NCBI GenBank assembly: GCA_964016885.1
Contig: OZ024742.1
Coordinates: 282,906,001-282,970,000 of the forward strand
Direction of reading: 5' to 3'
Length of the DNA stretch: 64,000 nt
DNA from: Eledone cirrhosa
Taxonomy: Eukaryota
The notes below the pieces were generated by a model. The model had not been told where the DNA came from, did no database searches, and saw nothing but the letters and a program-made list of their open reading frames with translations. This document shows, in pieces, positions 9,822-56,116 of this stretch. The stretch's first letter is position 1. Every line of letters starts with the position of its first letter. Made by a program: the position numbers and the translations under genes.

Positions 9822-10020
9822 TACTGACTGTAGTAGGTTTTACTTTGTATTTAGGTAAGGCGGGTCTTCTCTATTACTGAGTACCGCCAATGATCTCGGT
9901 CCAGTGACATTGTCTTGGAGAGGTGTAAGTGTGTGAGGTCGGAATTTATCAAGTCGTCCCAGGTTTTTCTGGGTCTGCCTACTCCGTGGCTACCGTCTAT
10001 TTTTATTGCCCTGCACTTAT
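9822..10020 (-). repeat. Inverted duplicate (left arm) of the 5' part of the LINE fragment at 10181-10379
   Basis: 199-bp reverse complement of 10181-10379 with two substitutions (GATCAT vs GACCTT). Confidence 0.9.
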
Positions 10021-10062
10021 ATACACATATATATATATATGTATGTATATATATATATATAC

Positions 10063-10149
<87 letters not shown>

Positions 10150-10180
10150 CACACATATATATATATATATATATGTGTAT

Positions 10181-10740
10181 ATAAGTGCAGGGCAATAAAA
10201 ATAGACGGTAGCCACGGAGTAGGCAGACCCAGAAAAACCTGGGACGACTTGATAAATTCCGACCTCACACACTTACACCTCTCCAAGACAATGTCACTGG
10301 ACCGAGACCTTTGGCGGTACTCAGTAATAGAGAAGACCCGCCTTACCTAAATACAAAGTAAAACCTACTACAGTCAGTAGGCACCTCTAACAAAATACAC
10401 CCCCGTCCCACCACCCCCACCCCATCCACACCGCCCCTTTCAATGAAAGTTATGTTGGTGCCACAACATCCAGGCCGAAACAAATGAGATCGTGTAGGTG
10501 TCACGACAAAAAAAACACACAGTCCATGCTGTAATGTGGCCGTGTAGGCAACACGGTAAAAACCTCCCAGCCCCACACTGTAAATGTGGTTGGTGTTAGG
10601 AAGGGCATCCAGCTGTAGAAAACCCGCCAAACAGTCCTATGCGAGCAAGACAACCACTCTTGCCTCAAGTGGGAAAACTCCCGTCTAAACCCATGCAAGC
10701 GTGGAATATGGACGTTAAACGATGATGATGATGATGATGA
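10181..10740 (+). mobile_element. RTE LINE 3' fragment (ORF end, 3'UTR, (GAT)n tail)
   Basis: Encodes [28 protein letters not shown]..., nearly identical to 37043-37580. Confidence 0.9.
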
Positions 10741-29400: not shown

Positions 29401-30640
29401 GTCAGACTGATTCTGCTTGAGAATTATGTTAAGGGGACACATGGCTGTGGAATACTCAACCATTTACACTAGAGTATAACATGGATTGTACTTGTAATTC
29501 AAAGGTCCTGTCATGTATTTTGTCATGCTGATTCAGCTTGTGATTACATTAACAGTATATGCGTCTGTGAAATACTCAGCCACTTATATGTTCAATCAAT
29601 GACATACAGTTGATCAAACAACTGAATGATCCTCGTCAAAACCGACAGAGAATCTATCTCTTAATGTAACAGCAATTCACAATAATAATATGATTGTGTG
29701 AATAAAAAGTTTGAGGAAATTGAATTTCAATTTGAAATATAGTAACAAGTTCTAGAGATTGCTTTTGAAATTGTCTTGTGTAATGTGTGTTTGTGTGGTG
29801 TGTATGTGTGTGTATTATTGTAATTTTAATGTGTTTAAATGTTTATAGGTCTGCATATGTATGAATAACACCATACACATACATGCATGTTTGTTTACAC
29901 AGATCTTAAAGTATGATTTTGCACACCCAGATATATATTCTTATTGTCACTTTATATATATATATATAAGAGAGAGAGAAGAGAGAAGATTGAACCTGCT
30001 ATATTAAAGGTAGCATATTTGGCAGTGATACTGTGAAATGTATATGGTGTTTATTTAGTTCTTATTCTCAGTTAAAAAGCATATATATATGTATATATAT
30101 ATATATATGACACTAATGTCTATAGTTCTCCTGCAAAAGAAATATTCTTCTCCTCAATTTTATGTAGATTTATACATTTTGATGTCTCTGGAGATTCAGA
30201 TGGATTGATAATTAGTATATATAGCAATATTTTTCTTTGTTTTATTTTATTATGTTCTTCATTTTTCCTTGTTTTTTTTAACATGATTATTTGTATAAGA
30301 ATTTACTTCCATATACTGGTATCGTACTAAATCATAAAATTGTTATTAATTATTGCTATTTAGAGATTTTTTAAATTTATATAAAACTAATAAAATGTTA
30401 TAAATTCTCCCTTGTTGAATTATTAGTTATATATATGTATTTATAATACATATATCATCATCATCATTACCGTTTAACATCTATTTCTCCATATTTGCAT
30501 GGGTTAGATGGGTTGTCATGTTATGAGACAAGTAAGGTCAGGTGACCTTGTCTTGTGTATACGGATTTGTATTTTGACTTGGTTTCTATGACTGGATGCC
30601 CTTCCTAATGCCAACCACATTAGGGTGTGGACTAGGAGCT

Positions 30641-30667
<27 letters not shown>

Positions 30668-30671
<4 letters not shown>

Positions 30672-31640
30672 GTTTCTCTCTAAAAATGAAAGGCAGATTG
30701 TATGATGATTGTATACGAACAGCAATGCTACATGGCAGTGAGACATGGGTTTTACATGCAGAGGACCTGCGCAGACTGGAAAGGAATGAAGCATGCATAC
30801 TCCGTTGGATGTGTAATAATAATATACGTGAACGGCAAAGCATAAATGAACTAAGTGAGAAATTAGGAATAAGAGGGATCAGATGCTGTTTACTTGCGAG
30901 AAGACTACGTTGGTATGGCCACGTGATGCGGATGAAAGATGACAGCTGTATAAAAAAGTGCAGAGCGATCAAAATTGATGGTAGTTACGGAGTAGGTAGA
31001 CCCAGAAAAACCTGGGACGATCTAATAAATTCCGACCTTACACACTTGCACCTCTCTAAGACAATATCACTGGACCGAGATCTTTGGCACTACGCAGTAA
31101 TACAGAAGACCCACCTTGCCTATGTACAAAGCGAAACCTACAGTCAGTAGGCACCTCTTAACCAAATATACCCCACAATCCACTACCCTACCCTATCCTC
31201 CCACTCCCACCAACACCACCCTCTCTCTGTAAAGTTGGTACCACAACATCCAGTCCAAATAAATGAGATAATTGTTTCTACTTTAGGCACAAGGCCAGCA
31301 ATTACCCAGTGCATTACTGGTACTTTATTTTATCGACCCCGTAAGGATGAATAAATGAGATAATGAGATTGAGATTGTGTAGGTGTCACGACAAAAAACA
31401 CACAGTCCACGCTGTAATGTGGCCGTGTAGGTAACACGGTAAAAAGTTCCCAGTTCCACACTGTAAATGTGGTTGGTGTTAGGAAGGGCATCCAGCCATA
31501 GAAAACCTGCCAGATAGTCCTATATGAGTGAGACACAGTCACCTGACCAACCTTGACTCAAGTTAGGACAACTCCCGTCTAACCCATGCTAGCGTGGAAA
31601 ATGGACATTAAACGAAGATGATGATGATGATGATGATGAT
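30668..31640 (+). mobile_element. 5'-truncated RTE LINE copy with a SINE fragment in its 3'UTR
   Basis: KGFSLKMKGRLYDDCIRTAMLHGSETW...RRLRWYGHVMRM, 3'UTR and (GAT)n tail. Begins at a TA tract. Reverse SINE piece at 31270-31350. Confidence 0.9.
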
Positions 31641-34800: not shown

Positions 34801-34840
<40 letters not shown>

Positions 34841-34846
<6 letters not shown>

Positions 34847-37222
34847 ACTAAATCCCTCCCCCATGAAGAATGCACCTCCCAACATAGACTGATAATTAGC
34901 GACCTCATAGTCAGGACGAGCCGTACTCGACAGCAGAAGAGGACTATCCTCAGGAGAAAAATATGGAAGCTAAAGGACCCCACAGCCAAAAATAAATTTC
35001 AAAACATATTACTTGATGCTTTCGACAGTAAGGAAGAACATTTAGAGTCGGACAATATAGAGGGACAGTGGGAATTTCTGAAAGCAAACCTGCTGTTGGC
35101 CACAGACGAAGTCTGTGGCTGGAGCAGGCCTGTAGGCAGGAGGAGAGTAACATGGTGGTGGAACAGTAAGGTGGAGGGGTCAATTAAGGCCAAAAAGCAG
35201 GCTTGGAAAGTATGGCGGGATGGGGGAAGTAGAGTAGACTATCAAGTGGCCAGGAGGGAAGCTAGGAGAGAAGTGTACTTAGCAAGAAGGGAAGCTGAGG
35301 AAAGAAAGTTCAAGCATGTCCTACAACGCGATGACCAAAAACGTGAGGTGTTCAGGATTGCTAGGCAATGCGTCAAGGAAAACCGTGATATTGTCGGGGA
35401 GAAGTGTGTACTTAACGATGATGGCATACTTGCCATCACCGACACTGATAAGAAGGTAGCTTGGAAGTGTCACTATGAAAGGCTACTAAATGAGGAGAAT
35501 AAATGGGAGAAAGACAGTCTCCCCCATGTCGACCCAATAGAGGGACCAGCAGTGTTAGTCGAGGGGAGTATAATAAGTAAGGCAATCAAGGATATGAAGA
35601 CAGGTAAGGCGGCTGGGCCTTCGGAAATAGTTGCTGAGATGCTGAAGGCATCTGGCACGGTGGGACACACCATGGTCACCCGCATAGTTAACCAAGTCGT
35701 ACAGAATGGGGTTGTTCCGAAGGACTGGCATAGCAGCATCATCGTTAACTGTTATAAGGGTAAAGGAGACGCCCTAGATAGGAGTAACTATAGAGGCATT
35801 AAATTAATCGACCAGGTCATGAAGGTCACAGAAAAAGTAATAGCGCAACTAATCAGAGAGAGAATTGACCTAGATGAAATGCAGTTCGGGTTTGTGTCAG
35901 GCAAAAGTACCACAGACGCTCTTTTCATAGTACGACAACTACAGAAGTACCTAGCTAAAGGTAAACCCCTCTACTTAGCTTTTGTCGACTTGGAGAAAGC
36001 CTTCGACAGAGTCCCCCGCTCCATTATCTGGTGGGCTCTTAGAAAACTAGGCGTCGACGAATGGCTTGTGAGGGCTATACAAGCCATGTATAAAGAAACA
36101 GTCAGCAAGGTTAGAATTAACAACGAATATAGTGAAGAGTTTAGCGTAAAAGTTGGCGTCCATCAAGGCTCTGTTCTCAGCCCCCTACTATTTATTATTG
36201 CCCTTCAGGCTATAACAGAGGAGTTCAAGACAGGCTGCCCATGGGAACTCCTATACGCAGACGACCTGACACTCATAGCGGAATCAATGGCCGAGCTAGA
36301 GAAGAAATTCCAAACATGGAAGCACGGCCTAGAGTCAAAAGGACTTAAAATTAACCTGGCTAAGACCAAAGTTCTAGTTTGTAGGAAAGAAAACAAGGCG
36401 GCGGTCCCTTCTGGGAAATGGTCGTGCTCGGTGTGTAGGAAAGGCGTAGGTAGAAACTCCATTTTGTGTCCTAAATGCAAAGTATGGGTGCATAAAAGAT
36501 GTAGTGGGATCACAGGTAAGCTAACTAAGAACATAGATTTTACATGTGGCCGGTGTTCTGGTGCAATAAGTAGCAGCAAGTGCCCACAAAATACTAGCTC
36601 TTTCAATTGCGCAGAGGGTTCTATAGAAATAGTGGACAGCTTCCGTTACCTGGGCGATAAAATCAGCAGTAGGGGAGGGTGCTCTGAAAGTACTGTAGCT
36701 AGAGTCAGAACTGGTTGGAAAAAGTTCAGAGAGCTTATACCACTATTAGCTGCTAAAGGGTTCTCCCTAAAAATGAAAGGCAGGTTGTACGATGCCTGCA
36801 TACGAACAGCAATGTTGCATGGCAGTGAGACCTGGGCATTGTGTGCAGAGGATATACGCAGACTAGAGAGGAACGAAGCTTGCATGCTCCGCTGGATGTG
36901 TAACAGTAATATACGTGAACGGCAAAGCATAAACGAACTAAGGAAAAAATTAGAGATAAGAGGGATCAGATGTTGTTTACTCGAGAGAAGGCTACGTTGG
37001 TATGGACACGTGATGCGCATGAAAGTCGATAGCTGTATAACAAAGTGCAGGGCAATAAAGATAGACGGTAGCCACGGAATAGGCAGACCTAGAAAAACCT
37101 GGGACGAGCTGATAAACTCCGACCTCACACACTTACACCTCTCCAAGACAATGTCACTGGACCGAGACCTTTGGCGGTACTCAGTAACAGAGAAGACCCG
37201 CCTTGCCAGTAGGCATCTCTAA
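34841..37222 (+). CDS. LINE polyprotein: end of APE endonuclease, reverse transcriptase and PHD-like zinc finger (5'-truncated, ~794 codons)
   Basis: The frame is open upstream of the called ORF (TKSLPHEECTSQHRLIISDL...). RT motifs NYRGI, FVDLEKAFDRV, GVHQGSVLSPLLF and LLYADDL. Cys cluster CSVC..CPKC...H..C...CGRC. C-terminal RGRP-like GRPRKTW. Confidence 0.92.
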
Positions 37223-40566: not shown

Positions 40567-40665
<99 letters not shown>

Positions 40666-40873
40666 ATTATATATATATATATATATAAATGAAAGGTATA
40701 GAAAATATTGTAGCAAAAAGCCAACAGTATTCCATAATATATATATATATGTATGTATGTATGTGTATATATATATGTATGTATGTATATATATGTATAT
40801 ATGTATATATATGTATGTATGTATATATATATACGTATGTATATATATATATATGTATGTATGTATATATATG

Positions 40874-40919
<46 letters not shown>

Positions 40920-40945
40920 TGTATGTATATATATATGTATGTATA

Positions 40946-41013
<68 letters not shown>

Positions 41014-41026
41014 TATATATATATAT

Positions 41027-41067
<41 letters not shown>

Positions 41068-41087
41068 TATATATATATACACATACA

Positions 41088-41173
<86 letters not shown>

Positions 41174-41205
41174 AGATCAAAAGATGGTTAAAGGAGTTCC
41201 ATATA

Positions 41206-41272
41206 TTTTATTATGCGCATTTCAAAAACAAACATCATCAAACAATGATATTTGTGTTTTCATCAGATAAAA
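41206..41272 (-). ncRNA. Type I hammerhead ribozyme (mirror copy in the left arm of the palindrome)
   Basis: Exact reverse complement of 41395-41461. Confidence 0.85.
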
Positions 41273-41394
41273 CAGGAGAACATGATATGAAGGCTAAAAA
41301 ACACTTGTTGATAGTGCAGTTTTAAATCAACATATGTTGATTTAAAACTGCACTATCAACAAGTGTTTTTTAGCCTTCATATCATGTTCTCCTG

Positions 41395-41461
41395 TTTTAT
41401 CTGATGAAAACACAAATATCATTGTTTGATGATGTTTGTTTTTGAAATGCGCATAATAAAA
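41395..41461 (+). ncRNA. Intact minimal type I hammerhead ribozyme
   Basis: UUUUAU-CUGAUGA-[AAACACAAAUAUCAUU GUUU GAUGAUGUUUGUUUUU]-GAAA-UGCGCA-UA^AUAAAA. 6-bp stem I, ~15-bp stem II, palindromic helix III AUGCGCAU, predicted cleavage after 41455. Confidence 0.88.
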
Positions 41462-41595
41462 TATATGGAACTCCTTTAACCATCTTTTGATCTTATATTA
41501 TGCATACTCCAGTCCCACAAACTGTAGAGTGCTTCTTATCCGATATCTGCATTGCTTTATTGTACTACAATAAAACTCACCTCCTACATTATATA

Positions 41596-41657
<62 letters not shown>

Positions 41658-45458: not shown

Positions 45459-45463
<5 letters not shown>

Positions 45464-45565
45464 AAAAGGTTCAGGACCCCAAACCACCTGGGGTCCTGAA
45501 CCTTTTCCTATTACCCACTCTACTACTCAAAGTATCGAGTACTCTGGTGTGTTATGGCTTCTGTC

Positions 45566-49864: not shown

Positions 49865-51276
49865 ATCATCATCATCATCATCACCGTTTTACGTCCGTTC
49901 TTCCACGCTAGCATGGGTTAGACGGGTTGTCCTGTTGTGGGCAGTGTCTGGTCGGCTGACCATGCCTTGCTCATACAGGAACTGATCTGGCTTGATTTCT
50001 ACAGCTGGATGCCCTTCCTAACACCAACCTCATTTACAGTGAGTGCTGGGTGCTTTTTCGTGGCGCCTACACGTCCACTTTACAGTGTGGGCTGGGTGCT
50101 TTTTTGCCGTGGCACCTCCACGACCACCTTGCGGTTGGGGGGGGGGGGGGGGGGGCATATTGTTTATATGCTTCAGCATGTACCCATGGGAGGTCGGGTA
50201 CCCTGTATTACTGCGTGACGCCAGAAGTCACGGTCGTGTGTCATTGACTTTGGGAGGTGTAGTTGGGTAAGGTCGGCTTTTATCACCTCATCCCAAGTCA
50301 TCTTGGGTCTCCCCACTCCGCGGTTTCCATCAACTTCTAGTGCTCTGCACCTTTTTATGCAGCTGTCATCCTTCATACGCATCACATGTCCATACCAGCG
50401 TAACCGCCTCTCCTGCACGCAGCATTTGATTCCTCTTATGCTCAGTCTCTCTCTCAATTCATTTATGCTTTGTCGTTCACGTATATTACTGTTACACATC
50501 CATCGGAGCATGCAGGCTTCGTTTCTCTCTAATCTACGTAAGTCTTCCACCTTCAGCGCCCAGGTCTCACTACCATGCAACATCGCTGTTCGGATACACG
50601 CATCATACAGTCTGCCTTTCATTCTGAGGGAGAAGCCTTTTGCAGCTAGCAGTGGTAGTAGTTCCCTAAACTTCTTCCATCCCGTTCTTACCCTAGTTAT
50701 TGTACTTTCTGAGCACCCACCTCCGTTGCTAATTCGGTCACCTAGGTAGCAGAAGCTGTCTACTGTTTCTACAGGGCCCTCCCAGAGATTGGTGGTACTT
50801 GTTTCCTGTGGCTGTTTGCTTGCTGTTTCAGCACAGCTGCTGCATGTGAATCCTACATTCTTAATTAAGCTTCCTGAGATCCCGCTACATCTCTTGTGTA
50901 CCCATTGTTTGCATTTGGGGCAAAGAATGGAGTTCCTACCTACACCTTTCCTACATACTGAGCAAGGCCATTTCCCTGAGGGGATCTGGGTTCTGTTTTC
51001 TCGTCTACTTATAAGGACCTTAGTCTTTGTCATGTTGACTTTGAGGCCCTTTCTCTCTAGTCCCTGCTTCCAGGTTTGGAATTTATTCTCTAGTTCTACC
51101 ATAGATTCAGCTATGAGTGCGAGGTCATCAGCATACAGGAGTTCCCATGGGCATCCGGTCTTAAACTCCTCCGTTATTGCCTGCAGGACTATGATGAACA
51201 GGAGAGGGCTAAGAACAGAGCCCTGGTGGACCCCAACCTGTACGCTAAATTCCTCGCTATACTCATTGCCAATCCT
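49865..51276 (-). mobile_element. 5'-truncated RTE LINE of a sister subfamily (RT C-half, PHD-like finger, 3'UTR)
   Basis: Open frame 51276->50173: RIGNEYSEEFSVQVGVHQGSVLSPLLF...LLYADDL...CSVCRKGVGRNSILCPKC. (CAT)n tail at 49865-49883; 5' end abuts a TA tract. Confidence 0.92.
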
Positions 51277-52318
51277 ATATATATATATATATAGTAATAA
51301 TAATAAATTTGAAGACTAAAGTCCAAAGAGGGCTCAATAAGGATAAATATATATATCAGAAGATCCCGTTAAGGGTGAAAGCAGCGATTCTTTGCTTAAA
51401 CTTTAATCTGTTATCTTAATAAATATATATATATATATATACATACATGGTGGCTGCCAACTCGTTTTCGAGTATGGACACTATTTTATATCCATGTAGG
51501 AGAACCCCTACCGATGCGCTGAATGTGTGTGACTATACATACATACATACATACACGCACATGCACACCCACATGCAAACATGCACATGCATAAACACGC
51601 ACGTACACACACATGTACCCATCTAACCCATGCAAGCATGGATAATAGACATAAAAAGGTGATGATATATATATGAGAAAATGCATTTTGAGAATCTTAT
51701 TTTTCCCTTCTCTTATTTGTGTTCAATTTTTTTCATCTTTCTCTCATTTGAAACCGCTACCCCCCCCCCTCCTCTTCCCCACATCCCACATCCCACACAC
51801 ATACACATACCAATATTTTTTTCGTCAATTCTGGAGCCAGTAACTTGTGGTTATTGGTTATTGCTATTCATTGTTATTGTTGTTGTAGTTGTTGTTATGG
51901 TTTTTGTTGTTGTTGTTGTAGTGTTTATCTATTCAATGCTGTTATTGCTTGAAAGTGTGTTTTGATATATTTCAGTGTTTTTTTTTTGTTTTTTCTTGTA
52001 TTGCTTAGTAATGTTATGTCATCATCATTATCATCATCATCATCATTATCATTGTCATTGGGTGGTGAATTGTCAGTATCGGTAGGGCAGTATCAGACAG
52101 CATGCTTTGCAGCATAGAGTTATGGCCCTTTTACGTTCTGAGTTCAACGTCGAGGTTAACTTTGCCTTTCATCCTTATGGGGGCTTGATAAAATAAAGTA
52201 CCAGTAATGCACTGGGGTAATTGCTGGCCTTGTTTTGTCAAAAGTAGAAACATTTATCATTATCCTCGTTGTCATCAGTGTCATCAGTGTCATCATCATT
52301 ATCATCATTATCATCATT

Positions 52319-55931: not shown

Positions 55932-56116
55932 GGAGGCACATGGCTTAGTGTTTAGAGCTTTAGATCCTTGCAATCAAAAGGTTGTGAGTTCAATTCTCAC
56001 ACCGGGTGATGTGTTGTTTTCTTGAGCAAGACACTTTATTTCACATTGCTCCAGTTTACTCAGCTGTAGAAATGAGATGATAGGGACTGGGGTGCCTATC
56101 ATTCCACTGCAAAGTG
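55932..56116 (+). mobile_element. CORE-like tRNA-derived SINE
   Basis: A-box TGGCTTAGTG, B-box GAGTTCAATTC, CORE-like TTGAGCAAGACACTTTATTTCACATTGCTCCAG. Confidence 0.7.

Follow-up and report, generated by a model that had tools for sequence, protein, structure and literature searches.

A spacer-free palindrome with 165-bp arms in the Eledone cirrhosa genome, probably a short Penelope-like element insertion formed by twin priming

Features of the locus

The window, a stretch of 64,000 nucleotides of Eledone cirrhosa contig OZ024742.1, contained at 41169-41498 a palindrome whose two arms were identical over exactly 165 bp, with zero mismatches and a centre between 41333 and 41334, within CATATG. 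The initial annotation, which had described the palindrome as perfect and spacer-free, was exact on this point. A tail of 92 bases, with AATAAA at 41569-41574, followed on the right side only, and (TA)n arrays at 40590-41173 and 41590-41657 flanked the insertion, both ends of which run into them as had been described. The features, several of them interpreted through the Penelope-like element (PLE) family discussed below, were as follows.

40590..41168, no strand: (TA)n-type microsatellite, left part of the target
41169..41335, minus: short arm, an inverted PLE pLTR lacking the tail, which spans the interval between the putative RNA start (minus-strand 41335) and the first putative priming site; based on identity to the right arm and on the outer ends of sibling copies
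41204..41274, minus: mirror of the predicted hammerhead, in the short arm; based on mirror coordinates
41332..41335, no strand: ATAT, the first four bases of the putative RNA, self-complementary and common to both arms; based on 842 exact centres, on arm stops and on short-read joints at 41331-41332
41332..41590, plus: tail arm, a PLE pLTR with tail, from the putative RNA start (41332) to the second putative priming site
41393..41463, plus: predicted type I hammerhead; based on the sequence and on comparison of 80 arms and 49 variants
41393-41400 paired with 41456-41463, plus: stem I of the hammerhead
41401-41407, plus: hammerhead core
41408-41443, plus: helix II of the hammerhead, long
41444-41447, plus: GAAA of the hammerhead
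41447-41454, plus: helix III of the hammerhead, ATG-CG-CAT
after A41455, plus: predicted cleavage site
41499..41590, plus: PLE tail, about 90 bp between two putative RT start sites
41591..41657, no strand: (TA)n microsatellite, right part of the target

The tail had been taken for unique sequence. Its restriction to the right side and its AATAAA stood, but its last 22 bases matched 12,332 exact places genome-wide (reversed-pattern control, 0). The AATAAA sits 13 bases before the CA at the tail end (41569-41590), the spacing typical of polyadenylation sites, and an RNA may likewise have its 3' end there; A-tails were not seen in the insertions.

Among the palindromes listed for the window, the second-longest non-simple arm was 23 bp. 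An inverted repeat with 23-bp arms at 45459-45511 has a 7-base loop and adjoins TA repeats. No host gene was recognised by eye among the ORFs of the window, where only other retroelement-like ORFs were seen. LINE-type RT ORFs of one family were read by eye at 34805-37219 (+; 805 codons, stop-free), 50176-51315 (-) and 30578-31147 (+). A weak tRNA match at 55941-56000 (+), at the Rfam threshold (30 bits), is probably the head of a tRNA-derived SINE. The near-identical reading frames that surround (TA)n 10018-10183 on the two strands (9854-10347) are suggestive of a further pair of retroelement fragments in inverted orientation.

The repeat family and its parent element

Positions within the repeat are numbered from q1, which corresponds to window 41334. 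A search with 41334-41590 returned 57 matches from 40 scored candidates, with ends mostly at q165-168 or q256-257, and the exact 24-base palindrome centre occurred at 842 loci genome-wide, compared with 0 for the reversed-pattern control. Two loci, L024 and L025, carried an identical insertion with identical flanks on contigs C1642 and C26 and are probably a duplicated haplotype in the assembly, so the genome counts may be slightly inflated.

The initial annotation had proposed a very young PLE and suggested looking for a parent with RT and GIY-YIG, and both ideas were borne out. An ORF of this kind, 809 aa long in L137, carried FDI, MGAS and YRDD motifs read by eye. ORF-start copies at least 99% identical to the long copy L031, in which the order was inverted arm, ORF, 3' region, q1-168 and TA, numbered 40, and an open frame of at least 790 aa was kept in 20 of 39 long copies (the other 39 ORF-start copies). 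Pfam GIY-YIG matched the C-terminal piece of the ORF at E=0.0036, below the curated cut-off; the Pfam search of the ORF gave no RT match and nothing significant for the whole ORF, and a PDB sequence search with the ORF likewise gave nothing significant. The ORF had the DKT that the Hydra clade carries in place of DKG (HSDKTNNLY), together with the CxCX5C linker and the CxxC and CxH beside E and N of that clade (CNCRIKNKC, CNLCLNE, ICLH); CCHH was absent from the ORF, and the GIY-YIG core held one Cys. Among 90 sampled tail ends, 87 ran into TA repeats, the (TA)n target, and 3 into the ORF leader. The parent is a young C-terminal GIY-YIG Penelope-like element (EN+) with Hydra-clade features. 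Diverged PLE ORF fragments with similar RT motifs lay at L032:3516-5321 (-), L034:6634-8349 (+) and L037:242-2189 (-), and on that evidence the genome holds several related PLE families.

In tandem copies the tail continues directly into the ORF leader, from which it follows that the palindrome arm is a pLTR, both 5' leader and 3' repeat. The designation of the locus as a 3' end was correct as far as the 3' repeat goes, and incomplete in that the same sequence also forms the 5' leader of the element. Partial-tandem pLTRs, inverted 5'-truncated copies and a one-sided tail were all present in the long copies.

At L038:73-4461 (contig C18, also L023) units of about 297 bp, at least 14 of them, were repeated head to tail. 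Each unit joined q65-257 to about 100 bases of the ORF leader and kept the hammerhead core, with most of the 5' strand of stem I lost, and the array ended in a small inversion. Judged by its composition, it is a retrozyme-like array derived from the pLTR-ORF junction of the parent PLE. The window locus itself, for which a retrozyme-type origin had been offered as the other option, is a head-to-head pair and not a head-to-tail array of hammerhead units.

Outer ends

As a rule in this family, one outer end lies at about 41498-41501 and the other at 41589-41590. The samples behind this rule were the first loci of contig C1 (50 palindromic, 90 tail-anchored) and were non-random draws. In 41 of the 50 palindromes one arm extended to q255-257 and the other to q165-178, and another ended at q249 and q168; in the remaining 8 one arm ended elsewhere, and none of the 50 had two tails or two short ends. 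The long copies in which both outer ends were visible at these sites had one of each in 15 of 15 cases; in 9 of these the inverted arm bore the tail, and in the other 6 the direct arm did. At the 90 tail-anchored loci, 32 of the 38 inverted arms with a start motif ended at the short site. Exceptions were L186, which had two tail ends, and L142 and L123, whose inverted pieces started elsewhere.

The start site at 41332

The inner ends of the arms concentrated at 41332. At the 90 tail-anchored loci, 23 tail arms stopped there, 28 ran through and 39 ended internally, and among the inverted arms with a start motif 25 stopped and 13 ran through, with both arms stopping at 17 loci. Genome-wide, the base before the start motif was G in 2,593 cases, T in 2,175 and A in 841, and the natural upstream sequence was present in 6,622; with 1,684 palindromic arms added, about half of the arms reaching 41332 stopped there. 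Three internal positions had 34 to 104 arm starts under a stricter two-base filter.

The template base before the start is C, and the G is therefore foreign. G made up 46% of the non-C cases at the start, compared with 3 of 33 internal tail-arm junctions counted by hand. Hand reading of 30 G junctions classed 11 as clearly untemplated and 14 as possibly derived from the opposite arm, with three short tandem jumps, one run-through variant and one unclear case making up the rest. A cap-derived extra G has been described for full-length L1 insertions (PMC11702581). We infer, from DNA junctions only, that a capped RNA starts at A41332. The context of A41332 fits the initiator consensus, if weakly.

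The long copies behaved differently from the arms, with at most 2 of 39 ending at the start site and many extending upstream of it. To account for their lack of concentration at the start, a second class of template, either longer or circular, would be needed. In these 39 copies (L120-L158, chosen for the ORF start) most direct arms ended inside the upstream pLTR and not further upstream, as if something in that pLTR stopped long cDNAs.

The predicted hammerhead

The pLTR contains the CUGANGA, GAAA and NUH core and the three helices of a type I hammerhead, with the core CTGATGA...GAAA at 41401-41447 (+) and its mirror at 41220-41266 (-). The initial annotation had seen a textbook minimal type I ribozyme here; the type and the palindromic helix III were upheld, with stems that pair across variants, while helix II, with about 15 pairs and an A-U instead of a G-C closing pair, departs from the textbook minimal form. 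The Rfam check that had been proposed for the hammerhead gave no match, either at the gathering threshold or among the 61 matches up to E=10. Matches to Rfam miRNA families scored below gathering and were set aside, as they reflect the hairpin.

Conservation of the core was taken from 80 arms, where each position was kept in 75-80 of the 80 and N7 varied most. Segments that had been picked by the core were excluded from this figure, because their core conservation would be circular. Across 49 variants, 97.3% of stem cells were paired, and the common stem variants were wobble-neutral swaps (A-U/G-U or C-G/U-G); covariation in the stems of the same variants amounted to one double change, with no excess over shuffles. 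Folded in isolation, the motif gave z -3.0 and a predicted structure lacking helix III, as would be expected of forms dependent on a dimer or a protein. Arm starts gave no clear cleavage footprint at the predicted cut, with 104 there against 78 and 34 at two control positions; those at the cut included 3-base deletions in 5 of the 20 read, plus one similar case. The lack of a pile-up of cDNA ends at the cut is consistent with an uncleaved template, which is also what PAc (Poseidon from Anolis carolinensis) uses. The hammerhead looks to be under selection, with self-cleavage a prediction.

Origin of the palindrome

Based on these data, we put the probability at about 0.7 that the window palindrome is a short PLE insertion into (TA)n made by twin priming on a capped sense RNA. 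The endonuclease would cut both strands of the (TA)n, after which the two target 3' ends would prime at different sites, about 41498-41501 for one and about 41589-41590 for the other, and the stretch between these sites would be the tail; this reading of the two sites is likened to the two internal start sites measured in vitro for PAc (PMC11167929). The template would be a capped polymerase II transcript from A41332, the extra G being a copy of the cap, and it would not yet have cleaved itself when copied, which would account for the whole hammerhead in each arm. Two cDNAs, likely primed from opposite target strands and templated either by one RNA copied twice or by two RNAs of one source, would each run to the RNA 5' end. 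Both would then finish in ATAT-3', and as these ends are self-complementary, annealing there followed by fill-in would give a spacer-free palindrome with exactly the centre found in the window. We also lean, by a narrower measure, towards a dimeric RT-endonuclease that would prime the two target strands asymmetrically, with one subunit per fixed internal site, on an RNA beginning with AUAU. As the best reading, two cDNAs contradict both fold-back copying and the published model of antisense self-priming.

Comparison of the two arms points to a common source. The arms differed by 1.2% within a locus, compared with 5.7% for the differences from the window copy that were common to both arms. In 13 of 38 sibling palindromes the arms were identical and in 25 they differed, and singleton variants were found on one arm in 50 cases and on both in 16. 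Arms that share differences and yet differ singly imply one source followed by separate decay, which after insertion had reached up to about 6%.

Fold-back or antisense self-priming, in which one strand (cDNA or antisense RNA) would snap back and copy itself, is the strongest competitor, and the initial annotation had likewise supposed a 5' part copied back on itself. Taken alone, the window locus is compatible with such copying because its short arm is identical to the tail arm and lies wholly inside it, and self-priming is the published preference for PLE junction palindromes (PMC3846280). The best case for it is L050, where the same 20-base duplication stands mirror-symmetrically on both arms; this duplication and the 16 shared singletons would also be explained by fold-back or gene conversion, and in L047, L051 and L062 short additional copies of the start stand on one of the two sides. 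As a route for the family, however, it meets 14 of 32 short-ended inverted arms that hold sequence missing from the tail arm, which is truncated further 3' (L178 is ambiguous), and fold-back cannot make these. Independent truncation of the two arms was common, and at L107 and L115 the arms do not overlap. Among 17 double-stop junctions, 7 had the perfect ATAT overlap and 10 a linker or a shifted overlap, and fold-back predicts neither such linkers nor an extra G on the sense side. It also gives no reason for a copy to end at one fixed site, and a zero-spacer fold would presumably need a loop of 2 bases or fewer. We therefore regard it as unlikely.

Much less probable still is a non-autonomous palindromic element that is transcribed and moved whole by the PLE protein. 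The exact centre common to 842 loci and the identical arms at two different loci, L041 and L046, are what such an element would leave, but the palindromes are spread across the sequence variants of the family, their junction linkers vary, and solo arms grade without a break into arms of several kilobases that have the same ends. A recycled hairpin RNA might also leave traces of editing, and the 86 arm differences (two loci being partly misaligned) showed no excess of the ADAR type, with A>G in 2 and T>C in 9 (11 of 86) and C>T in 17.

The self-silencing switch suggested in the initial annotation, in which the antisense arm would sequester the hammerhead in a 165-bp duplex at this locus, fares slightly worse and is highly improbable. 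The stems do keep their pairing across the family, and a 165-bp dsRNA hairpin would form if the locus were transcribed through, with a predicted energy of -278.5 kcal/mol (z -38) that would bury both motifs. The conservation, however, belongs to the parent element, and the arms decay independently after what is a recurring by-product of insertion; the insertion lacks the ORF and upstream sequence, and no host gene was recognised in the window ORFs. With neither a cleavage footprint nor an ADAR signature, the switch is unsupported, and the two predicted ribozymes in the palindrome are likely passengers.

The least probable explanation is an assembly or chimeric-read artefact. The read evidence across a palindrome comes from a sibling copy, whose centre a short-read contig crosses with 44 bases on each side, and not from the window locus together with its flanks. 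A chimera made by fold-back, however, would carry mirrored flanks instead of ending at family-specific sites, and these ends, the differing arms of sibling palindromes and the spanning contig together make an artefact unlikely.

Implications

The window locus itself is an ordinary PLE insertion, and its value lies at the level of the family. The PLE origin of head-to-head repeats, junction palindromes and the one-sided tail is stated as open in the literature (PMC3846280 among others). If the dimer reading is true, an inverted pLTR, a junction palindrome and a one-sided tail would all arise in one step, and that step would replace antisense self-priming; if the RNA does begin with AUAU, the ends of finished cDNAs could anneal to one another or to the (TA)n target. 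Our literature search, with most subscription papers outside its scope, found no proposal of this mechanism for PLEs. On the dimer reading the family would be a genome-scale footprint of PLE integration. With its intact ORFs and more than 12,000 tail ends in a single genome, it supplies priming sites predicted to the base, a capped start that is likewise predicted, and a rule of strand asymmetry for the in vitro assay (PMC11167929). The hundreds of near-perfect 165-bp hairpins could also feed small RNAs directed against the active family, if host transcription crosses them.

Comparison with known systems

The comparisons below draw on portions of the papers cited. Among described PLEs the family most resembles the Hydra clade of C-terminal EN+ elements (Craig et al. 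2021, PMC8557442), with which it shares a single ORF with RT followed by GIY-YIG, the DKT, CxCX5C and CxxC/CxH motifs, (TA)n targets and a canonical-core hammerhead in the pLTR. In that work the entry for Penelope-13_HM includes an attached inverted copy, with hammerheads on the two strands. The present family differs in its unit of about 3.6-3.7 kb and ORF of about 800 aa, longer than the 'generally <3 kb' of the clade (a general, not a strict, rule), in having RWT where the clade has RWK, in its helix II of about 15 bp, and in a tail of about 90 bp compared with the 30-40 bp given for PLEs. Its hammerhead matched none of those tabulated in the supplement of the same paper, Hydra-1_oBim included (PMC8557442).

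For PAc (Frangieh et al. 2024, PMC11167929), a predicted dimer, the protein cleaves and extends both strands, and two internal RT start sites bound the tail. Two start sites bounding the tail and cutting and extension of both strands, all proposed here, AT-rich targets and an uncleaved RNA template, which we propose here as well, are points of agreement. In contrast, PAc belongs to another clade and has its start sites inside the ORF, whereas the putative sites here lie upstream of it; no start-site difference between the strands is apparent for PAc, and inverted insertions are not treated in the portion of the paper used here (PMC11167929).

The Penelope elements of Adineta vaga (Arkhipova et al. 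2013, PMC3846280) also have inverted pLTRs with a tail on one of them, head-to-head junction palindromes and an Inr-like motif in the pLTR, but they are present in few copies and their junction palindromes measure 18-38 bp. These palindromes were read as self-priming on an antisense template, a point that the authors left open. The hammerhead is similar to the min-HHRs of metazoan PLEs (Cervera and De la Pena 2014, PMC4209133) in its type I core, palindromic short helix III and enlarged helix II, although helix II is about twice as long here and the conserved G10.1-C11.1 pair is A-U or G-U. The same study already noted 'dual min-HHRs', which lie on opposite strands at a distance of 100-700 bp. 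Non-LTR retrozymes (bioRxiv 10.64898/2026.07.22.740005) share the type I hammerhead and a PLE pLTR ancestry, but they form head-to-tail arrays and the window locus a head-to-head pair. PLEs typically show inverted 5'-truncated copies and carry a tail on one end.

In the twin priming of L1 the position of the second site varies, and the two segments are not known to overlap; the present family has two fixed sites, and its arms usually repeat one and the same sequence. The two systems are alike in the extra G at full-length 5' ends, and in L1 the second target end primes its own cDNA and end-joining unites the two (PMC11702581). Inverted pLTRs, a one-sided tail and hammerheads on opposite strands are thus already known for PLEs; what is new in this family is the rule that governs the outer ends and the start.
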